From contig JBEKMU010000010.1 in the NCBI GenBank assembly GCA_049523555.1, forward strand, positions 1,395 to 65,394: a DNA stretch of 64,000 nt, in the 5' to 3' direction. The notes beneath the pieces are model-generated. The model was not told where the DNA came from, did no database searches, and was given only the letters and a program-made list of their open reading frames with translations. Shown here one piece after another: positions 1 to 10,506 of this stretch (its first letter is position 1; every line of letters starts with the position of its first letter). Position numbers and translations under genes: made by a program. Source of the stretch: Verrucomicrobiota bacterium (GTDB lineage: Bacteria; Verrucomicrobiota; Verrucomicrobiia; Limisphaerales; UBA11358).

Positions 1-9
1 GCCCGATAA

Positions 10-939
10 ATGTCGCACCAGCCGGACAACATTTTTGCCGGGACACAGGTCGTGTCGCTGGTCGAAGTGCGGGGAACGAATAATTCTCTGGTTCACCCAC
101 GCGGTGCGGTGGGCGTCGTCACGCGTACGCCCACCGGCGATCAAAATCAATTCCTCGTCCGCTTCCCTGACGGTTTCGAAGCGTCTCTCACCCGCGAGCA
201 GTTGGATGTCCTGAAGCATTTCAAGGATCGCCTTCAAAGTAGCGCAGGCGTCCCGCCTGCGAACTTCGACTTGGAATCGCTGGTCGTCTACCGCTGCGTC
301 GTTGGCTCGCGGGCGTATGGACTGGACAACGATGAATCCGACACCGACCGGCGCGGCATCTATCTTGCGCCTGCCGAACTGCAATGGTCGCTCTTCGGCG
401 CGCCGGAACAGTTCGAGGACAATGCCACGCAAAGCTGCTACTGGGAATTGCAGAAATTCCTAACCATGGCGCTCAAGGCGAATCCGAACATTCTGGAATG
501 TCTCTACTCGCCGATGGTGGAAAAGGTCACGCCTTTGGGTGAAGAATTGCTGGCCATGCGGGAAGCGTTCCTGAGTCAGATGATTTTTCAAACCTTCAAC
601 GGCTACGCCATGAGCCAGTTCAAGAAGATCGAGCAGGACATTCGAAATTCAGGCCAGATTAAATGGAAACACGCCATGCATCTGCTGCGCCTGCTGCTGA
701 CCGGCGCAGCCACATTGCAAAACGGCAATGTGCCAGTGCACGTCGAGGCGCACCGCGAACGATTACTTGCCGTCAAACGCGGCGAAATGTCGTGGGCCGA
801 AGTGGACGCTTGGCGGAAGGAACTTCACCACGACTTCGAACTCGCTCTGGCCGAAACCAAACTGCCCGAACGCCCCGATTACGAAGCGGCGAACCGCTTC
901 CTTATCAAAGCACGGTGGGAAGTCACCGAACGGAAATGA
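10..939 (+). CDS. Pol-beta-fold nucleotidyltransferase (pfam10127/RlaP-like), NTase-1 of a three-gene cassette
   Basis: 309-aa ORF. Motif VVGSRAYGLDNDESDTDRRGIY (GS-x10-DxD) plus a helical C-terminal half and an extra ~90-aa N-terminal region. Paralogue of 3873..4688. TAA at 7-9 abuts the ATG. Confidence 0.7.
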   Translation: MSHQPDNIFAGTQVVSLVEVRGTNNSLVHPRGAVGVVTRTPTGDQNQFLVRFPDGFEASLTREQLDVLKHFKDRLQSSAGVPPANFDLESLVVYRCVVGSRAYGLDNDESDTDRRGIYLAPAELQWSLFGAPEQFEDNATQSCYWELQKFLTMALKANPNILECLYSPMVEKVTPLGEELLAMREAFLSQMIFQTFNGYAMSQFKKIEQDIRNSGQIKWKHAMHLLRLLLTGAATLQNGNVPVHVEAHRERLLAVKRGEMSWAEVDAWRKELHHDFELALAETKLPERPDYEAANRFLIKARWEVTERK

Positions 940-945
940 CACATA

Positions 946-3870
946 ATGGCCTCAATTGATCAAGTCGTTCAGCAAATCCGATTCGCTTTAGAGAACCTCT
1001 CCGAACGAAACGGGCAGCATGAGTTCGAGCATCTTTGTCGGCATTTCGCTCGTCACCGTATCTGTTTTAATATTCTTCCAGCGACTGGACCTGTTGGCGG
1101 TGGGGGCGATCAAGGCAAGGACTTTGAAACCTTCCGAACTTTTATCCACAGCCTCGGTGATGATAAATTCGCGGCCGTTGCTGAAAAAAAGAAACTGGCC
1201 TTTGCCTGCTCGCTCCAGAAGCAGGGGAATTTAAACAGGAAGATTCGCAGTGACGTCACGACCATCATGTCAGGCTCGCAACGGCCAGACATCATTTATT
1301 TCTTCTCGTCGCGTCCGGTGAATGTTGCCGCACGCCATAAGCATCAGTCGTGGGCACAAGAAAAACATCGCGTTGAGTTAGAGATTATTGACAGGGAAGC
1401 GCTGGCTGAACAATTATCGGATCCAAAAGTCTTTTGGATCGCGACACGGTATCTCAATGTACCGTTAGAAATCTTCCCGCCGCTCCCAAAGGCAAATGAA
1501 GAGTATGAAATCAAGAAGACAAGTTGGGCCAAGGCAACTGATTCGCCGTCCCGCTATTCTGATTTCGTGGAGTTGAAGCGATGCGCCCGGTATGCGCTTA
1601 ACAATTCACCCCAGGATGTCCCTTTCTGGTTAGGATTTCTCGAACAGTTCGAGAAATCACGGTTTGATGATCCTGTTTGGACACAAGTTGCCTATGAAAT
1701 CATGGTCTTGACTGTTCGGCAGACACGTTCGCTACGCGGTCAGGAAGAACGGATTCGCCGATATCTTTCCCAAGCTGAGAAGTTCCAGTATCCTGATGAG
1801 GTCGACAATGCCGTCACGATAATAGGCTACTTGGTTGGTGCTCATCGGTTGGGTGAAATCGAAATGGCCTCGAAAGAGATTCATCAACGATGGCTGGAGT
1901 TTCGGGACAAGATCGAACGCGGCATTGCGAAGCCAGCATCACCAAATCAACTTTGCCTCTGGCTTGAAATTCGTGGCCACCTTTCATTTGCGGGAGGCGT
2001 GATGAAGGAAACTCTGCCCGACATTGGTGAAACGCTTTCATGGTGGTTACGGGCCGCTATAAAATGTTCAAAAGCACCGGCTTTTCCGGTTCAGCAGTTC
2101 CATGACAATCTTTTTGATTACATGGGATTTATTGGAGAGCACCCGACATTTGAGGCAATTCTCGAAAAACTGCGGCCAGAGATTGCCAAGCGAACGGGTA
2201 AGGCCGCACTTGCAGAATCCCACTTTAAAAGAGCGCAACAGTTCTCCAAGCAAAAACAATTCGTCCGAGCCATTCGGGAACTCCACTCGGCTCGCGTGAA
2301 GTGGTTTTCGGAGGAGACGCTCGAATGCTCCGCACTTTGTGGCGTTCTTGTCGCACGCTGCTATTCGTGTCTAGGTCTACACTACGCGGCTATTTACTAT
2401 GCTCTGGCAACTGGGTTCATCGTGGCAAATGCCCCTCAACCGTCACTCACAGACAAGCTCTACGAGTGTCTGGCTACCGCTGCGGAGGCTGCGTACGGAC
2501 AGGGGCATTGGTACTTGTTTTTTGGATTAACGGAAGCCTTGCTCATTCTGCACAGGGAGCGTGCGCCGAATCCAACTGATCTTGAAAAGCACGAGCACCT
2601 CCAGTGGTTGGTGCAAAATCTCCCGATGGCATCGCTCGTAACACAGCGGCTAGTTCCGTCTCATTTTGATCGGTTCATGAATAATGTCCGTCGCTTGGGA
2701 TTCGGCAAACTGACTGAGGAAGGAATGGGCGTAATCAGACCGCCCTTTGACAAGTGGACGAAGGAGGAATTCGCGAATGCCCTTCGCAAAAGTTTTACCG
2801 GTCCGCCATTCTCGGACGCCGGCAAAAAATGTGAGGTCACATGGTCAGCCTTGGGCGTCAGGTGGCGAGTTCGATGGGACAACACCTACCAAGCGTTCAA
2901 AGTCGCTGGTGAATGCGTTGCATTCCTTCAAATTGCCATCGCGGAATTTGTAGGTTGTGACCTTGATGTTGTGCCGGGTGACTTGCGGGCAGAAATCGAA
3001 CTGACGGACGAAGCAAAAGTTACTGTAGAACCGTTACCGGATAATACTGCCTATCAATGGCGGTTTCGCGTGCCGCGAGTACCTGTACTTGGGCGTGGGG
3101 GAGTAAACGACTATGTCACGCATATGCTCATTTGTGTGGTCAAGATAGTTCGGGCGTTTTCTGTAATGCCGTCGGACAAATTCAAATCATTGGTCATCGG
3201 TGAAAGAGGATCACGTGTTTTCAGCCACGCGTTCTTCGCGCGGCGCTTCCCTGAGTTGATTGAGTTCTTCCTGCCCGAAGTTGGATTTCGAGCCGATTCT
3301 CGTACGGCCTTTGAGTGTCCTATCCAACCGGAAGGGTGGAGACCCATAGTTCCATCGGAACTCGAATGGATAAATACAGTTCATCCGAGTTTTGATGAGG
3401 CCGCAGAACTGGGGCGAATTCGCAAACGTTACGATGTGACAACACGAGGTCTCAAGTTCACGCTGAAACGGCTGCAAGAAAACTCGGAGTTTCGCTCAAT
3501 TGTTGCGAATCTGCGAGCCAAAGGCTGGAAAGACTGGCATGTGCTTCAGGCGATGTTGAATGCCGTTGCCAACTATCGCACTAACGAAAAGCTCGGGAGA
3601 TTTGCCGGAAAGGCCGAGTGGATAAAAGCCTTCAAAGAGGAGAGCTTTTCAGAGGAACGGCCAGATAGCTTAACAGTACCGATTGAGAAGCTCTCTGAAC
3701 GTGAGCTCGAATTTGCCACACTCACGACCGTGTTAAGCACCTTGTCTCACTTGGGCCTTGAACCGCGCCACACCACGCCCAATTTCGAAGGTTTGCGAGA
3801 ATACCTTCGACATCGCTGGCGTTACTGGGATTTGGATGTGGAACATCCGCCGGTTTTTGAGGAGTCCTGA
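946..3870 (+). CDS. 974-aa protein: N-terminal Mrr-like restriction-endonuclease-like domain plus ~790-aa helical region of unknown function
   Basis: Long ORF with 6-nt and 2-nt spacers to its neighbours. N-terminal pattern GQHEFEHLC...GGGGDQGKDFETF...LAFACSLQK resembles the Mrr core (FE-x-L, GDxGxD, strand-QK). No Walker A seen. Visibly AT-richer than the flanks. Confidence 0.5.
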   Translation: MASIDQVVQQIRFALENLSERNGQHEFEHLCRHFARHRICFNILPATGPVGGGGDQGKDFETFRTFIHSLGDDKFAAVAEKKKLAFACSLQKQGNLNRKIRSDVTTIMSGSQRPDIIYFFSSRPVNVAARHKHQSWAQEKHRVELEIIDREALAEQLSDPKVFWIATRYLNVPLEIFPPLPKANEEYEIKKTSWAKATDSPSRYSDFVELKRCARYALNNSPQDVPFWLGFLEQFEKSRFDDPVWTQVAYEIMVLTVRQTRSLRGQEERIRRYLSQAEKFQYPDEVDNAVTIIGYLVGAHRLGEIEMASKEIHQRWLEFRDKIERGIAKPASPNQLCLWLEIRGHLSFAGGVMKETLPDIGETLSWWLRAAIKCSKAPAFPVQQFHDNLFDYMGFIGEHPTFEAILEKLRPEIAKRTGKAALAESHFKRAQQFSKQKQFVRAIRELHSARVKWFSEETLECSALCGVLVARCYSCLGLHYAAIYYALATGFIVANAPQPSLTDKLYECLATAAEAAYGQGHWYLFFGLTEALLILHRERAPNPTDLEKHEHLQWLVQNLPMASLVTQRLVPSHFDRFMNNVRRLGFGKLTEEGMGVIRPPFDKWTKEEFANALRKSFTGPPFSDAGKKCEVTWSALGVRWRVRWDNTYQAFKVAGECVAFLQIAIAEFVGCDLDVVPGDLRAEIELTDEAKVTVEPLPDNTAYQWRFRVPRVPVLGRGGVNDYVTHMLICVVKIVRAFSVMPSDKFKSLVIGERGSRVFSHAFFARRFPELIEFFLPEVGFRADSRTAFECPIQPEGWRPIVPSELEWINTVHPSFDEAAELGRIRKRYDVTTRGLKFTLKRLQENSEFRSIVANLRAKGWKDWHVLQAMLNAVANYRTNEKLGRFAGKAEWIKAFKEESFSEERPDSLTVPIEKLSERELEFATLTTVLSTLSHLGLEPRHTTPNFEGLREYLRHRWRYWDLDVEHPPVFEES

Positions 3871-3872
3871 GA

Positions 3873-4688
3873 ATGACCATTGACCCACGCCTTCAGCGCA
3901 TCGTCGCGGCGCAGCCGTATCCGCTGCTGTTCGCCACGATCAGCGGCGCGCACCTTTATGGATTTCCGTCGCCGGACTCGGATTTCGACCTGCGCGGCGC
4001 GCATGTGCTGCCGCTTGAAAAGGTCGTAGGGCTGGATGTACGCGATGAAACGGTCGAGGACTCGCGGGTGATTGACGGGCTCGACATGGACATTGTGAGC
4101 CATGACGTGAAGAAATTCTTCGGACTGTTGCTCAAGAAGAACGGTTACGTGCTGGAACAGCTTTTCTCGCCGCTCATCGTCCATACCACGCCGGAGCATC
4201 AGGAACTGAAGGCGATCTGTGCCTTCAAGCCGGTTGCGTCGAACGACAACATTCCTTTTCCTGCGCCCGGCGGTGTTATCACCAAGCATCACTCGTATCA
4301 CTACTGCGGCTTCGCGGAGACGCAGTGGAAGCTATTCCTGAAGGAATCGCCGCGGCGGGTGAAGCCGTTGCTCTACGTTTATCGCGTCCTGCTCACGGGC
4401 ATTCACCTAATGCGTACGGGCGAAGTGGAGGCAAACCTCCTGACGTTGAACGAGGAGTTTCGATTGCCTTACATCGCTGACCTCGTGGCACGAAAGCTGG
4501 CCGGGCCGGAAAAATCCAGACTGGAAGACGCAGATGTCGCCTTCCACGAATCGGAATACCAACGATTGCGGGGAGAATTGCAGGCGGCACATGAGACCAG
4601 CCAGCTCCCGGAGTTGCCCAGCGAGGAAACGCGAGCAGCGTTGAATGATTTGCTCGTGAGAATTCGCACCAAAAAGTTTTCGCGTTGA
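3873..4688 (+). CDS. Pol-beta-fold nucleotidyltransferase (pfam10127/RlaP-like), NTase-2
   Basis: 271-aa ORF. Motif ISGAHLYGFPSPDSDFDLRG plus a helical C-terminal half. Start is 2 nt after the upstream stop. Confidence 0.7.
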   Translation: MTIDPRLQRIVAAQPYPLLFATISGAHLYGFPSPDSDFDLRGAHVLPLEKVVGLDVRDETVEDSRVIDGLDMDIVSHDVKKFFGLLLKKNGYVLEQLFSPLIVHTTPEHQELKAICAFKPVASNDNIPFPAPGGVITKHHSYHYCGFAETQWKLFLKESPRRVKPLLYVYRVLLTGIHLMRTGEVEANLLTLNEEFRLPYIADLVARKLAGPEKSRLEDADVAFHESEYQRLRGELQAAHETSQLPELPSEETRAALNDLLVRIRTKKFSR

Positions 4689-4775
4689 AAACGATTCGTG
4701 TTGTTTTCCACCTTCGCCAAGGCTACGGTGGACCGGCGTGTTTATTCATGGTTAGCATCACGTCGTTTTGTCCCG

Positions 4776-5933
4776 ATGAAAGCAATTCTGGCACTTGAAG
4801 ACGGCTCGGTGTATCAGGGGCAGGGTTTCGGCGCGCGCGCGTCCGCGTGCGGCGAGGTCTGCTTCAATACTTCGATGACCGGCTACCAGGAAATCCTCAC
4901 CGACCCTTCCTACAAAGGCCAGATTGTCACGATGACCTATCCGCTCATCGGCAATTACGGCGTGAATGCCGTGGATGTGGAATCGTGGCAGCCGCACGTC
5001 GCCGGTTTCGTCGTCCGCGAACTTTCGCCGGTCGTCAGCAACTGGCGCGCGGATTTTTCGCTCGCCGAATATCTGGAGAAAAACGGGGTTCCGGGAATTC
5101 AAGGCATTGACACGCGGGCGTTGACCAAAAAACTCCGCGTGCGCGGTGCGATGAACGGATTTATTTCCACGGAAAACATTCCGGACGAGGAGGCCCTGCG
5201 CCGCGCGAAGGAATTCGTCTTCGTCGGCGTGGATTACGTCAAGGAAGTCACGCACAAGAAAGCCTTTCGCTGGGATGAAAAGGACGAGCAGAGCGGGGCG
5301 TTCGACCTGGCGCGCGGCAACGCGACCGTTGACGCCCGGCAAAATCGCAAGCCGCTGCCGCCTGCGGACATTCCCATTGTCGCCCTGGACTACGGGCTGA
5401 AATACAACATTCTGCGCCGGCTGCGGCAGCACGGTTTCAGTGTGCAGGTTTTGCCGGCGACGGCGTCCGCCGACGACGTGCTCAAGCACAAACCGGCGGG
5501 CATTTTTCTGTCCAACGGCCCCGGCGACCCGGCGGTGCTTGATTACATCGTGCGCGCAGTGAAGGCGCTGGTGGACACCGGTATTCCGATTTTCGGGATT
5601 TGTCTCGGCCACCAGATTCTCGGCCTGGCGTTCGGCGGGAAAACCTTCAAATTGAAATTCGGCCATCGCGGCGCGAACCAGCCGGTGAAGGATTTCGAGA
5701 CCGGCCGGGTGGAAATCACGGCGCAGAACCACGGTTTCGCCGTGGACCCTGCGAGCCTGCCGCCGGACGTGGCCGTCAATCGCATCAATCTCAACGACCA
5801 GACCGTGGAAGGTTTGCGGCACAAAACGAAGCCGGTGTTCTGCGTGCAGTATCATCCCGAAGCCTCGCCCGGGCCGCACGATTCGACGCCGCTGTTCGCT
5901 GAATTCCGCGCCCTGATTGAGCGGCGGGGTTGA
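4776..5933 (+). CDS. carA: carbamoyl-phosphate synthase small (glutaminase) subunit
   Basis: [21 protein letters not shown]-terminus and GICLGHQ glutamine amidotransferase motif. Start trimmed to the internal ATG at 4776. Confidence 0.93.
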
Positions 5934-5992
5934 GATGAGATTTCCGTTTGACTTGAAACGGGCAGCAGTCATAATCGGTTCACCGTAAAGCT

Positions 5993-6544
5993 ATGGCCAA
6001 ACTTGTTATCCTGACTCAAGGCATGACCGACCGGGCGCATGAGTTGAAAGCGGATCGCACCACCATCGGCCGTGTGGAGGATAACCTGTTTCAAATCGCC
6101 GAGCCGTCCGTCTCCAGCCATCACTGCGAGGTGCTTTTACGCGGCAATGACGTCGTTATCAAAGACCTCGATTCCACCAACGGCACGTTCATCAACGGCG
6201 AAAAAATCGCCGAAAGCATTTTGAAACCCGGCCAGACCTTGCGCCTCGGCAACGTGGAACTGCGCCTCGACACCGGCGCGCCGGCAGCCGCTCCCGCTCC
6301 CGCACCGGCTGGTGCGCCCGCCAAAAAAACCCCGGACGGCACAATGGTCATGCCGCGTGGCGTCAGTTTGGGTGATTTGGAAAAGGGCGGTGGACGCCCC
6401 GCGGGTTTCGACACCAACAAGGAATTTTCCAAAAGGACCAACAAGGTCAACAGCATCTTCCTCATCATCGGCATCGCTGCCGGTTTGCTCATCATCGCTC
6501 TTATCCTCTACGCGCTCTCGCTCGCCGGCAACAGCCACAAATAA
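5993..6544 (+). CDS. FHA domain protein with C-terminal transmembrane anchor
   Basis: TIGR..N..I....VSSHHCEV...VVIKDLDSTNGTFINGEKI is a typical FHA pattern. Ala/Pro linker and hydrophobic C-terminus. Confidence 0.8.
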   Translation: MAKLVILTQGMTDRAHELKADRTTIGRVEDNLFQIAEPSVSSHHCEVLLRGNDVVIKDLDSTNGTFINGEKIAESILKPGQTLRLGNVELRLDTGAPAAAPAPAPAGAPAKKTPDGTMVMPRGVSLGDLEKGGGRPAGFDTNKEFSKRTNKVNSIFLIIGIAAGLLIIALILYALSLAGNSHK

Positions 6545-6562
6545 AAATCCGGTTTCGCGGTC

Positions 6563-7379: not shown

Positions 7380-8523
7380 ATGTTCGAAACGGTTAAAACA
7401 GAAATTACGACGGCGTCAGAGAAACTCGCGCACCTGCGGAGGTTTCTTTGACGTGCCCGCCGCGCAGAAGCGCCTCGGCGAGCTCAACGCCCTGATGGCC
7501 GCCGACAATTTCTGGAACAACCGCGAAAAGGCGCAGGCGCTGATTGACGAGGCCAACTCCCTCCGCAACAAAATCGAGCCGCTGCTTCAGGCGGAAAAAC
7601 ATCTGGAGGATTTCCGTGTGATGCTCGAACTCGGCGGGGCCGAACCCGCCGACGCACAACCGAAAGTCCAGCAGGAATTGGAACGCGACGTCGCGAAATT
7701 TGTCAAGGACCTCGATGCGCTGGAACTGAAGGTCTTTCTCAGCGGCCCGCACGACCGGAAGAATTGCATCCTGAGCATCAACGCCGGCGCGGGCGGCACC
7801 GAGGCGCAGGATTGGGCGGAAATGCTGTCGCGCATGTATCAGCGGTGGGCAGAATCGCGCAGCTGGGAGGTCGAAGTCACCGACGCGCTGCCCGGCGAAG
7901 GCGCAGGCCTCAAGAGCGTTACCATGCTGCTTCAAGGCGAAAACGCCTACGGCTTCGCCAAGGCCGAACGCGGCGTGCACCGGCTGGTGCGCATTTCGCC
8001 GTTCGACGCGAACAAGCGGCGGCACACCAGCTTCGCCAGCGTGGACGTGATTGCCGAAATCGAGGAAAACACCGACCTCGTCATTCCCCCAAATGAGTTT
8101 CAAGTGGACACGTTTCGTTCCGGCGGCAAAGGCGGCCAGAACGTGAACAAGGTCGAAACCGCCGTCCGCATCACGCACATTCCGACCGGTCTCGTCGTCG
8201 CGTCGCAAACCCAGCGGTCACAGCACCAAAATCGCGCCACGGCGATGCGACTGTTGCTCTCGCGGATTTATGCCCAACGGCAGGACGCGGCGAAGGCCGA
8301 GATGGAGCGGTTTTATGGCGAGAAAGGCAGCATTTCGTGGGGTAACCAGATTCGCAGCTACGTCTTTCAGCCCTATCGCATGGTGAAGGATTTGCGCACG
8401 GGCGTCGAAACCAGCAATGTTCAAGCTGTGATGGACGGCGATTTGGATCAATTCGTGAACGGCTGGCTCCGCGCCGGTTGTCCGACGAAGCGGATGCAGG
8501 GCGTTAAGGATGATGAGGAATAA
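7380..8523 (+). CDS. prfB: peptide chain release factor 2, requires programmed +1 frameshift at 7446-7452
   Basis: ORF0 MFETVKTEITTASEKLAHLRRFL ends at CTT TGA C. The +1 frame continues DVPAAQKRLGELNALMAADNFWNN and includes the SPF and GGQ motifs. Confidence 0.95.
7438..7452 (+). promoter_or_regulatory. RF2 autoregulatory +1 frameshift site (internal SD GGAGG + CUU UGA C)
   Basis: GGAGG at 7438-7442, then 3 nt, then CTT TGA C at 7446-7452. Confidence 0.9.
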
Positions 8524-8609: not shown

Positions 8610-9449
8610 ATGAACATTCTCGACACCATTGTTGAGCAAAAGAAACGTGAGGTCGCGCAACTGCCTGCGCGACTCATCGCCGCCGGCGATTTGCGCGATG
8701 CGCTGCTCGAACGCGGCGAGAGGCGCGATTTTCTCGCGGCCTTGTGCCAGTCGCGTCATGGCGACATCGCGCTGATCGCCGAGGTCAAAAAGGCGTCGCC
8801 ATCGGCGGGCGTGATTTGCCAGGACTTTGACCCGGTCCGCATCGCCAAAGAATACGAAGCGGCGGGTGCAAGTTGCCTGTCGGTTTTAACTGACGAAAAA
8901 TTCTTTCAAGGTTCGCTCGATTATCTCCAGCAAATCCGCGCAGCGGTGAAGCTGCCGTTGTTGCGGAAGGACTTCATCATTGATGAGCGGCAAATCCTCG
9001 AGGCCATCGAATGGGGCGCGGACGCCATCCTGCTCATCGTCGCCATTTTGAGCGACGACCAATTGAAAAAGTTCCATTCGCTGGCGACCGAAGCCGGCTT
9101 GGCTGCATTGGTTGAGGTTCACGACGAAGCGGAATTGGAACGCGCGCTGAAAATTGGCGCGAATTTGATCGGCGTCAACAACCGCGATTTAAGAACTTTC
9201 AAGATGGATTTGGCGACGACAGAAAAACTGGCGGCAGAATTAAACCGTAGGACAGGCGTCTCGCCTGTCTCTAAAATTAAAAATGGAGACAGGCAGGATG
9301 TCTGTCCCACGCTTGTTGCCGAAAGCGGCATTCACACGCGCGCGGACGTGGAGCGGTTGAAGAAATGCGGCGCTAACGCAATTTTGGTCGGCGAATCATT
9401 GATGCGCGGTGGTGATATTCAATCCAAAATCCGCGATTTGATCGGGTGA
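8610..9449 (+). CDS. trpC: indole-3-glycerol phosphate synthase carrying an in-frame palindromic-element insertion
   Basis: KKASPS, NNRDL and ESGI blocks. About 20 extra residues (RRTGVSPVSKIKNGDRQDVCPT) are encoded by the repeat at 9247..9310. Confidence 0.9.
   Translation: MNILDTIVEQKKREVAQLPARLIAAGDLRDALLERGERRDFLAALCQSRHGDIALIAEVKKASPSAGVICQDFDPVRIAKEYEAAGASCLSVLTDEKFFQGSLDYLQQIRAAVKLPLLRKDFIIDERQILEAIEWGADAILLIVAILSDDQLKKFHSLATEAGLAALVEVHDEAELERALKIGANLIGVNNRDLRTFKMDLATTEKLAAELNRRTGVSPVSKIKNGDRQDVCPTLVAESGIHTRADVERLKKCGANAILVGESLMRGGDIQSKIRDLIG
9247..9310. repeat. REPIN-like element, family A (GTAGGACAGGCG...), inside trpC
   Basis: 64 bp with two inverted hairpin units and GTAG / C(C)AC termini. 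About 85% identical (reverse orientation) to 17772..17835. Confidence 0.8.
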
Positions 9450-9453
9450 ATTG

Positions 9454-9531
9454 GTAGGAGACGAGGTAACGAGGCTCACTTGATTTCGGATTTCGGATTT
9501 GAAGTGTGAGCCTCCTTACGTCGGCTCCTAC
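9454..9531. repeat. REPIN-like element, family B (GTAGGAGCCGACGTAAGGAGGCTCAC inverted pair)
   Basis: Two ~26-bp arms in inverted orientation (about 23/26 complementary) around a TTTCGGA-repeat loop. Lies between convergent trpC and pdxA. Confidence 0.75.
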
Positions 9532-9534
9532 TTT

Positions 9535-10506
9535 TCACTTCCGATTTTTTGCCAGTTGCTTCGCCAGCCGAATCGCCGCAATCATGCTCGAGGGATTGGC
9601 GATTCCCTTTCCGGCGATGTCATAGGCCGTGCCGTGGTCTGGCGAGGTGCGGATAAAGGGCAGACCCAGCGTCCAGTTCACGCCCGTGTCAAACGGATAC
9701 ATCGCCACGACGGCGTCAAAATCCCCGCATAGGGCATAATGAAAGACCGTGTCGCCGCTCAACGGTCCGATGACATCCAGTCCGCGTTTCTGCGCCGCGA
9801 GCACCGTCGGCGTGATGGTTTTGATTTCCTCATCGCCGAATTCGCCGCCTTCGCCCGCGTGCGGATTCAAACCACACACGGCGATTTTCGCGCGCGACAA
9901 ACCCAAATCACGGCACGCTTGCGCGGCCAATTCGATGGCAAGCGCGATTTTTTCCGCGGTGAGTTTTTGGGGGACCGATTTGATGGAAATGTGGATGGTG
10001 GCCAGCGCGACGCGCAACCAGCGGTCTTTTTCATCATGGCCAAGCAGCATCATTGCGGTGCGTTTAGCACCGGCGAGTCCGGATAGAAATTCAGTCTGGC
10101 CGACAAATTCGTGTCCGGCGCGGATGATGGATTCCTTGTTGACCGGCGCGGTGACGAGCGCATCCAATTCGCCGCGAAGACAGCGTTCCGCGCCGTCGCG
10201 CAGCGAGGCGATGGCGGCGTTTGCGGCGGCAGGTGAACCGGCAGTCAGATTTTCCGACAACGGTTCGGAAAGCGGATTTGCAACATAAATTTTTTCTCTA
10301 AAGATATGTTTATCGTAGTAGGTGGAAAAATTTTTCAGTGGCATATCAAGCCCGAGCTTCCAGTTGAGACTCTGAAGATAATTCTCATCGCCGATGAGCA
10401 AATAGCGCGTGTCGTCGGCTTTGTATTCGGCAGCGACGGCTTTGAGCGTGACTTCGGGGCTGATGCCGGTCACGTCGCCAAGTGAAATGCCAATCCAGCC
10501 GGTCAT
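9535..10506 (-). CDS. pdxA: 4-hydroxythreonine-4-phosphate dehydrogenase
   Basis: PdxA-like sequence throughout (GDVTGISPEV..., CGLNPHAGEGG). Start trimmed to the ATG at 10506. Confidence 0.9.
   Translation of the reverse strand: MTGWIGISLGDVTGISPEVTLKAVAAEYKADDTRYLLIGDENYLQSLNWKLGLDMPLKNFSTYYDKHIFREKIYVANPLSEPLSENLTAGSPAAANAAIASLRDGAERCLRGELDALVTAPVNKESIIRAGHEFVGQTEFLSGLAGAKRTAMMLLGHDEKDRWLRVALATIHISIKSVPQKLTAEKIALAIELAAQACRDLGLSRAKIAVCGLNPHAGEGGEFGDEEIKTITPTVLAAQKRGLDVIGPLSGDTVFHYALCGDFDAVVAMYPFDTGVNWTLGLPFIRTSPDHGTAYDIAGKGIANPSSMIAAIRLAKQLAKNRK

Follow-up and report, generated by a model that had tools for sequence, protein, structure and literature searches.

Hotspots of defence genes include those of P2/P4 prophages and systems embedded in type I restriction-modification (R-M) loci. 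In the core defence hotspots of Pseudomonas aeruginosa, conserved flanking genes surround the defence content (PMC10250203). The RlaP family of nucleotidyltransferases (NTases) is named for its association with RNA ligase, and T4 NrdC.11 belongs to it (PMC12776372; PMC7824862). Its biochemistry has been worked out on the Pseudomonas enzymes only (PfRlaP and PaRlaP), which add one or two nucleoside monophosphates (NMPs) to RNA 3'-OH ends, with damaged RNA preferred (PMC12776372). Here we describe a locus in which these two subjects meet, at the start of a 64,000-nt stretch of contig JBEKMU010000010.1 (hereafter the window) from a Verrucomicrobiota bacterium. Two RlaP genes, RlaP1 and RlaP2, enclose a 974-aa open reading frame (ORF2). 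We judge it probable that ORF2 is a candidate for single-protein defence, autonomous and horizontally mobile, which now sits in a cargo slot between RlaP1 and RlaP2, and that the two RlaPs are RNA-repair enzymes co-expressed with ORF2 without specifically controlling it. To our knowledge, the Verrucomicrobia, an abundant soil phylum, are almost absent from studies of defence systems. Burroughs and Aravind reportedly defined RlaP in 2016, and paired RlaPs may already be noted there.

Genes of the locus

The first-pass annotation had described three same-strand ORFs, 6 and 2 nt apart, with a stop codon abutting the first ATG, and all of its coordinates were confirmed. The elements of the locus are as follows.

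10-939, + strand: ORF1 (RlaP1), 309 aa; a TAA at 7-9 abuts its ATG
940-945, + strand: 6-nt spacer between the RlaP1 stop (TGA 937-939) and the ORF2 start, the left cargo junction
946-3870, + strand: ORF2, the cargo gene, 974 aa; TGA 3868-3870
3871-3872, + strand: 2-nt spacer between the ORF2 stop and the RlaP2 start, the right cargo junction
3873-4688, + strand: ORF3 (RlaP2), 271 aa

ORF2 and ORF3 are genuine genes and not chance ORFs, because the former has at least 289 full-length homologs and the latter more than 8000. The sequences GSRAYGLDNDESDTD, SGAHLYGFPSPDSDFD, GQHEFEHLC, GGGGDQGKD and LAFACSLQK are contained in the translations of ORF1, ORF2 and ORF3. As had been anticipated, no named defence system was recognised, PADLOC being without matches for all three proteins. 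The taxonomic placement of the window was inferred from the source names of close homologs and from synteny.

ORF1 and ORF3 had been taken for paralogous Pol-beta NTases of the pfam10127 type, and both points hold. Residues 91-299 of ORF1 (E 1.4e-43, 149.8 bits) and 3-263 of ORF3 (E 1.5e-50, 172.7 bits) match the Pfam family PF10127 (RlaP; cut-off 23), and BLASTP aligns the two proteins at 22% identity with an E value of 3e-12, which makes them distant paralogues. The Pol-beta NTase signature G[SG]-x(9-13)-DxD, as read from the translations, corresponds to GSRAYGLDNDESDTD in ORF1 and SGAHLYGFPSPDSDFD in ORF3, the catalytic motif taking the form GS...DxD in the first and SG...DSDFD in the second. 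Residues 1-90 of RlaP1 form an N-terminal extension without an assigned fold. A ubiquitin-like domain was considered for this extension, which matches polyubiquitin with whole-sequence E values down to 3e-14. It was rejected as a repeat-summation artefact because each repeat by itself contributes 5.6 bits (independent E ~200), in an alignment that runs across the repeat junctions.

RlaP1 orthologs of 72-91% identity sit 5' of the cargo in related loci. RlaP2 is very strongly conserved, many of its homologs being 80-94% identical and carrying the source names Pedosphaera or Verrucomicrobiae; a sequence search with ORF3 against the PDB gave no match. On three Deinococcus plasmids, two RlaP paralogues are adjacent, with a 4-nt overlap, in Hen1-RlaP-RlaP-(hypothetical)-Pnkp operons, and ORF3 is 51-54% identical to the second RlaP of these operons. 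Because of this operon setting and the biochemistry of the family, the RlaP1/RlaP2 tandem appears to be an old RNA-repair unit. RNA-repair genes are also found in orthologous loci, with Hen1 and Pnkp inside the bracket in L163 and L106 and RtcA-Hen1-Pnkp beside it in L095. Embedding in an RNA-repair operon, which had been named earlier as an outcome to look for, is thus seen for the RlaP pair in Deinococcus and in some verrucomicrobial loci, but ORF2 is not part of the repair unit. Cargo-split RlaP pairs were observed in this survey solely in verrucomicrobial loci.

The window genes resemble the characterised RlaPs in their strong family match, the GS...DxD motif and the presence of orthologs in or beside Hen1-Pnkp and RtcA loci. 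However, each characterised RlaP is encoded by one gene, placed between rtcB and rtcA. Here there is a fixed pair of paralogues, split by an unrelated 2.9-kb gene, and the RlaP genes have ORF2 and carA as neighbours, without a ligase or other RNA-repair gene close by. In Deinococcus gobiensis, an AbiEi/AbiEii pair (with an NTase toxin) and IS3 elements lie directly 3' of the Hen1-RlaP-RlaP-Pnkp operon (L182, 10872-12246), which is another juxtaposition of RNA-repair and conflict genes.

Distribution of the ORF2 family

The homolog search with ORF2 returned at least 289 proteins, all unnamed and nearly all 960-1030 aa long, and none of the 120 homologs listed has a Pfam domain. The best match to ORF2 is only 74% identical, compared with the many at 80-94% for ORF3. 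The family comprises about 1,300 representatives at 50% identity, to which a sister subfamily with a Cap4-type nuclease can be added. A scan with one genome per species found it in 293 GTDB species genomes, both bacterial (Verrucomicrobiota, Acidobacteriota, Chloroflexota, Actinomycetota, Bacteroidota, Pseudomonadota and phyla of the Candidate Phyla Radiation) and archaeal (Methanosarcina, Bathyarchaeia and Methanobacteriaceae among others). Twelve plasmids carry a member, four of them conjugative and two mobilizable, and the family is absent from 50,697 phage records.

When all ORFs of 91 ORF2-homolog loci were translated and searched with ORF1 and ORF3, an RlaP neighbour was found in one locus (L006), and clustering of the three genes on either side yielded no neighbour family recurring in more than three of the 91. 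The ORF2 family is normally a solitary gene without a conserved partner. The co-occurrence of the triad across genomes, suggested earlier as a check, therefore largely failed: RlaP flanks accompany ORF2 only in close relatives, on three further contigs (L006, L177 and a JGI contig). RlaP1 is 80% and ORF2 about 58-59% identical to the window in L006; the corresponding values for L177 are 82% and about 72-74%, with RlaP2 at 79%. The ORF2 relative of L177 (1038-3937) is split into ORFs of 671 and 297 aa with a 10-nt overlap, and is either a frameshifted pseudogene or an assembly error.

The neighbours of ORF2 homologs are mixed and include HTH/PIN proteins, type I R-M subunits, Lamassu LmuB, MADS components, SLFN/AlbA_2 proteins and integrases; a further neighbourhood holds Mrr_cat and STAND genes. 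On a Blastomonas MOBQ plasmid the homolog lies between an ABC-three-component (ABC-3C) system and a reverse-transcriptase gene. In Agrobacterium pusense it is beside a PIN gene, an IetAS-like pair (ATPase and S8 peptidase) and IS6, and in Hymenobacter beside a HipA toxin-antitoxin pair. A different tight partnership is seen in L007 (268-4450), where a 65%-identical ORF2 relative has a Peptidase_M78 (ImmA/IrrE-type) gene 4 nt on its 5' side, an RNase H gene on its 3' side and no RlaPs.

Domain architecture of ORF2

ORF2 has no match in Pfam (E<=1), NCBIfam, PADLOC (PADLOC-DB 2.0, dated 2023; E<=1) or the PDB sequences. Its AlphaFold2 (AF2) model, with a pLDDT of 88.9 and a pTM of 0.85, is divided into the following parts.

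946-1485, + strand: N-domain, aa 1-180 (~1-170 in the AF2 model), alpha/beta; putative PD-(D/E)xK (Mrr-like) nuclease effector
1492-2793, + strand: helical-repeat (TPR-like) array, aa 183-616, all-helical, pLDDT ~90; putative sensor or scaffold
2827-3075, + strand: small alpha/beta domain, aa 628-710; invariant G637, N646 and Q662
3091-3819, + strand: C-terminal helical domain, aa 716-958; conserved R828-Y829 and G860-W-x-D-W-H865

The model and a Foldseek search with the full-length protein, which retrieved nothing but TPR and solenoid scaffolds, the LGN/Pins TPR domain and further alpha-solenoids among them, bear out the previous description of a long helical-repeat body without a P-loop. 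Neither Pfam, the AF2 model nor the family scan revealed an NTPase domain or an alpha/beta P-loop region, and no SAVED, CARF, HEPN or AbiEi domain was recognisable with Pfam or Foldseek. The body of about 750 aa is without a Pfam or PDB match.

The invariant acidic and lysine residues of the family are clustered in the N-domain, where E28, G48-P49-V50, G54-D55, D59-F60-E61, K99 and D103 are invariant and H25 is conserved in at least 90% of members; K92, in 'SLQK', is not invariant. Among these, E28, D55, D59, E61, K99 and D103 would be candidates for a catalytic D...(D/E/Q)xK constellation, but the loop with the GGDQG.DFE motif (~42-79) is the sole poorly modelled part of ORF2 (pLDDT <50), so that their placement is not confident. 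With the isolated N-domain, the top Foldseek match is the Mrr-like nuclease domain of Avs4 (8dgf_A; E 0.021, prob 1.0, TMq 0.43), a non-significant alignment with a root-mean-square deviation of 3.3 Å over 112 columns, and further matches are EcoO109I, XisH, Cap4, FokI, Can2, Nt.BspD6I, Mus81 and BamHI. The Mrr-like character first proposed for the N-terminus thus agrees with the best structural match and finds no support from hidden Markov models; as a PD-(D/E)xK assignment it is plausible, not established.

The N-domain profile was also compared with 1.84 billion representatives. The best 150 matches were nearly all from its own family, and distant architectures were picked by length and identity. 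Among them, the N-termini of a NACHT-TPR protein (P0257) and an NB-ARC-TPR protein (P0279) match the profile with E values of ~1e-71 to 1e-75, the shared N-domain occupying the effector position of NLR/Avs-type proteins. The body, for its part, aligns over residues 227-959 to residues 317-1081 of a Hymenobacter protein (E 8e-54), whose sister subfamily of 147 proteins, mostly from Bacteroidota, carries an N-terminal Cap4-type dsDNA endonuclease (PF14130). One body with two alternative nuclease heads, and one head with alternative sensor bodies, would correspond to the modular pattern of immune sensor-effector proteins, and this domain swapping appears to argue more strongly for an effector/sensor design of ORF2 than the fold and profile comparisons do.

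ORF2 is akin to Avs and NLR-like STANDs (Avs4, PDB 8dgf) in the apparent joining of an N-terminal nuclease-type effector and a long repeat sensor in one polypeptide, and in sharing its N-domain with NACHT-TPR and NB-ARC-TPR proteins. Unlike them, it lacks a NACHT or NB-ARC NTPase and a P-loop, and its 750-aa body is a distinct conserved module; NACHT and NB-ARC occur only in distant proteins with the ORF2-type N-domain. ORF2 would then work as an 'effector + sensor' single-protein system, in which the ~750-aa helical/TPR-like body may sense an invader-derived cue, and sensing would release or assemble the putative N-terminal PD-(D/E)xK (Mrr-like) nuclease, which would cut DNA. The large, unnamed family that it defines consists of candidate nuclease sensors without an NTPase.

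The variable slot between RlaP1 and RlaP2

Brackets formed by RlaP1 and RlaP2 were surveyed in the contexts of ORF3 orthologs and in 80 further loci from a metagenome scan with ORF3, which gave 44 non-redundant Pedosphaera-like verrucomicrobial loci with both RlaP types visible. The two genes are adjacent or overlapping in 10 of these and separated by 0.4-6.2 kb in the other 34. No ORF2 homolog was present in the 85 loci of the bracket survey, and BLAST clustering distinguished at least 25 cargo configurations. The gaps are densely coding on one strand. Stop-to-stop plus-strand open frames cover a median of 99% of the gap, and 32 of 34 loci reach at least 85%. Except at L167, where the strands tie, the longest frame is always a plus-strand one (33 of 34). 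At the left junction, homology between alleles stops in the last RlaP1 codons and the cargo begins 0-25 nt on. At the right junction, homology resumes at the RlaP2 ATG (MTIDPRLH...), with the cargo stop ~0-15 nt before it or overlapping it. No shared repeat or attC-like inverted repeat was evident in the junction sequences, and no integrase or transposase was found inside the brackets examined or next to the slot.

The same locus is found with other cargo in the closest relatives. L097 aligns to positions 2-921 and 3873-6547 of the window, carA included, at 86-91% DNA identity (91% and 96% for the RlaP1 and RlaP2 proteins), but ORF2 has no counterpart there and an unrelated gene of 1.46 kb, coding for 478 aa, takes its place. 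L092 is likewise syntenic with the window (dihydroorotase pyrC ... carA-FHA-prfB-trpC) and has an AAA_21 gene as cargo. The GC content of ORF2 (0.49-0.53) is lower than that of the RlaP genes (0.555-0.578) and of carA (0.60). From the L097 swap, the distant brackets that hold ORF2 and this GC contrast, we conclude that the cargo is replaced faster than the frame around it diverges. The cargo recognised in other brackets is listed below.

L108, L148: type IIG restriction-methylases
L147, L102: AAA and subtilase (S8) proteins, IetAS-type
L129: 1538-aa protein with a NACHT C-terminal NCAB2 domain
L113: NACHT protein and a 965-aa protein without a recognisable domain
L126: 1324-aa CHAT protein
L118: TIR and M28 peptidase
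L114, L140, L151: M28 peptidase alone
L116, L150, L092: AAA_15/AAA_21 ATPases resembling AriA and Ppl
L137: ClpB-like protein, kinase-TPR and DUF2971
L121: ankyrin repeats
L163, L106: Hen1 and Pnkp
Pedosphaera metagenome-assembled genome: DuOB and two DUF488 genes
L097 (478 aa), L099 (993 aa), L110 (446 aa): no Pfam domain at E<=1e-4

Most recognisable cargo thus looks like anti-phage or conflict machinery. Conserved flanks, content that varies between close relatives and many known defence genes are features of a defence hotspot, and all three are seen here. In L095 and L096, the cargo is a protein of 263-326 aa, with RtcA-Hen1-Pnkp on its 5' side and a PolyA_pol-family gene on its 3' side. 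In three brackets the cargo consists solely of a member of one family of 326-331 aa (L095, 6968-7948; L123, 6010-6996; L125, 5981-6976), whose members are 55-69% identical to each other and have no precomputed Pfam match. An M28 peptidase of 299-336 aa also recurs, directly 5' of RlaP2, its 3' end overlapping the called RlaP2 start:

L114, 3174-4073: M28 peptidase next to RlaP2
L118, 1928-2938: M28 peptidase next to RlaP2
L140, 2351-3271: M28 peptidase next to RlaP2
L151, 6088-7011: M28 peptidase next to RlaP2
L147, 6088-7011: M28 peptidase next to RlaP2

In two of these loci it stands behind other cargo, namely TIR (L118) and IetAS (L147), and it may belong with RlaP2 as a semi-fixed accessory instead of being free cargo.

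The slot is comparable to known defence hotspots in its conserved flanks, its variable and mainly anti-phage content and the differences in cargo between close relatives. It differs from them in that the flanks are two paralogues of one operon, otherwise adjacent or overlapping, that the cargo is co-oriented in essentially every locus and packed within a few nt on both sides, that no mobility genes were seen, and that truncated 5' copies of RlaP2 mark cassette boundaries. An orientation-locked slot inside an operon, set between paralogous enzymes of RNA repair and scarred at a single site, is a defence hotspot of an unusual kind, and it raises the question whether RNA repair and immunity are co-regulated or an undescribed recombination route is at work. 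RlaP1 and RlaP2 form a conserved tandem pair, found within Hen1-Pnkp RNA-repair operons in other phyla, and in a verrucomicrobial lineage resembling Pedosphaera their short junction appears to have turned into a slot whose cargo varies. The co-oriented, tightly packed cargo is probably co-transcribed, and would be exchanged between strains by recombination in the conserved flanks. The bracket may serve as a discovery tool for verrucomicrobial defence genes, several of its occupants having no recognisable domain.

Truncated RlaP2 copies

In five independent loci, a truncated extra RlaP2 start with the first 24-33 codons lies between cargo units, 0.8-2.2 kb 5' of the intact RlaP2. These scars, and the sequence at which they end, are the following.

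L099, 5571-5654: RlaP2 5' scar
L103, 1749-1880: RlaP2 5' scar
L110, 3971-4042: RlaP2 5' scar
L147, 4785-4865: RlaP2 5' scar
L152, 4974-5069: RlaP2 5' scar
Window, 3939-3953, + strand: ATCAGCGGCGCGCAC, RlaP2 nt 67-81; encodes ISGAH of the NTase G[SG] motif and contains a GCGCGC palindrome

In four of the five loci the homology of the scar ends at or within a few nt of ATCAGCGGCGCGCAC, which suggests that the breakpoints are a preferred site of recombination or insertion. The scars fit serial insertion of units made of cargo and an RlaP2 5' end, or else alleles that recombine unequally at a favoured position. A recombinase was not found in cis, and the window itself is without an RlaP2 scar. A fragment of the RlaP1 3' end (C-terminal coding) is duplicated 5' of the type IIG R-M cargo in L148 (1178-1336 and 2910-3047), and may be a mirror-image scar at the left junction.

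Like the cassette arrays of integrons, the slot has cargo that looks promoterless, is co-oriented and tightly stacked 3' of a fixed gene, and shows recurrent boundary sequences. Unlike in integrons, cassettes are bounded by a duplicated stretch of the RlaP2 5' end and are often multi-kb single genes or multi-gene systems. An integron was rejected, as the slot has no IntI-type integrase beside it and its junctions, those of the window included, show no evident attC-like inverted repeats. We tentatively raise the idea, to which we give a low probability, that the RlaP1/RlaP2 junction is a cassette-capture platform, in which units of immune gene(s) and the first ~75 nt of RlaP2 are inserted site-specifically at the GCGCGC-containing site, building stacked, promoterless, co-transcribed arrays in an integron-like manner without an integrase in cis. 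If this were true, expression of the RNA-repair NTase pair would be mechanistically tied to innate immunity, and ORF2 and the cargo proteins of unknown type (478, 993, 965, 446 and ~330 aa) would be new defence systems.

Alternative explanations

The three genes had been interpreted at first as a possible NTase-controlled nuclease system, in which the two NTases would control the nuclease-like giant, for instance through a nucleotide signal or a toxin/antitoxin partnership. The tight coupling of the genes in the window, their identical order on three other contigs and the lack of a match to any known system fit such a dedicated triad, but 90 of 91 surveyed ORF2-family loci have no RlaP neighbours, RlaP pairs either enclose nothing or have at least 25 other configurations of cargo between them, and in the closest genome a different gene stands at this place. 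Furthermore, RlaP is an RNA 3'-end NMP transferase and not a cyclic-oligonucleotide synthase, PADLOC gave no CD-NTase, MNT or AbiEii match, and ORF2 has no recognisable nucleotide-sensor domain (SAVED, CARF, HEPN). A system of the CBASS/CD-NTase, MNT-HEPN or AbiEii type was rejected on similar grounds, the NTases being RlaP only and ORF2 lacking SAVED, CARF, HEPN and AbiEi, and the dedicated NTase-nuclease-NTase system itself is rejected on lack of co-occurrence; we regard it as highly improbable. The main alternative, which we hold to be rather unlikely, is a looser form of coupling. In it, the RlaP pair would be the constant part of a modular conflict system whose middle genes, ORF2 among them, are interchangeable sensor or effector partners, as in CBASS or retrons. 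The RlaPs would then mend RNA that the cargo damages collaterally, or serve as a common effector. This alternative stays alive because uniform orientation, near-zero spacers and the absence of mobility genes are not what one usually sees in a mere hotspot. Both RlaPs are retained throughout, the cargo runs in their direction with overlaps or few-nt spacers on both sides, no integrase or transposase was seen inside the brackets, and the RlaP-ORF2-RlaP triad persists through substantial divergence. The chemistry of RlaP, 3'-NMP addition to RNA, also recalls the nucleotide addition to tRNA 3' ends by MenT/AbiEii toxins. Against it stand the 10 loci with an empty pair, the Deinococcus pair, a plain tandem in a repair operon, and the solitary occurrence of ORF2 in essentially all other lineages. 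Moreover, the cargo includes complete systems that are autonomous elsewhere (type IIG R-M, IetAS, TIR, CHAT, NACHT STANDs) and target DNA, protein or NAD and not RNA.

It is also unlikely, in our assessment, that ORF2 is non-immune. It would then serve the upkeep or selfish spread of mobile DNA, as an addiction module or exclusion factor, or take part in DNA repair or recombination, and the slot would collect any accessory DNA. In favour of this, the slot also has occupants outside the classical defence genes (M28 peptidases, ankyrin proteins, DUF488/DuOB, Hen1-Pnkp), ORF2 homologs occur on plasmids and beside insertion sequences or integrases, and PADLOC is negative. On the other hand, most identifiable cargo is of defence type, the family was not found among the phage records, and ORF2 has its effector domain in common with NACHT/NB-ARC-TPR proteins and its body in common with Cap4-nuclease fusions, a kind of shuffling that is a hallmark of immune sensors. 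Several observations weigh against our preferred explanation, an autonomous defence gene in a slot between two RNA-repair genes, which like all conclusions here is built on sequence comparison and one structure model. For the N-domain, no Foldseek match reaches E<=1e-3, the Pfam family Mrr_cat (PF04471) has no match in 48 family members at E<=0.1, and PDB searches with ORF2, the N-domain profile and the whole-family profile were empty. A comparison (hhalign) of the N-domain profile with one Mrr_cat protein (L004) gave a probability of 0.3%, although a single-sequence target makes this a weak test. The loop with the most conserved motif is modelled with low confidence, and PADLOC 2.0 does not recognise ORF2. 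Many solitary ORF2 homologs stand among plain metabolic genes, so that the enrichment seen near defence genes is an apparent one. Co-transcription is inferred from nothing but the spacing and scans in which promoter and terminator matches stayed at chance level. The recurrence of the triad at 58-74% ORF2 identity in three other contigs counts on the same side, and the extreme packing, uniform cargo orientation and retention of both RlaPs could mean real functional coupling. With the autonomous reading of ORF2, an unsupported three-gene model is replaced by a testable one, as ORF2 is expected to work alone.

Neighbouring genes

The next gene 3' of ORF3 is carA, as had been reported. The mechanically called carA ORF begins with GTG at 4698, 9 nt past the ORF3 stop; since the conserved N-terminus starts at ATG 4776, the true gap between ORF3 and carA is probably ~87 nt (window 4698-4776). 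Over positions 1-6000 of the window, searches of Rfam, promoter and terminator scans and repeat analysis gave nothing above chance. In L092, an extra Kinase-PolyVal gene without a counterpart in the window lies between RlaP2 and carA (8994-9821), and this interval may be a second variable position. The same locus has three tandem tyrosine-recombinase genes (1-2300) ~4 kb 5' of RlaP1. Further downstream in the window, at 7440-7455, a canonical prfB +1 programmed frameshift site (GGAGG ... CTT TGA C) links a short ORF ending at 7451 to the RF2 body at 7453-8523.

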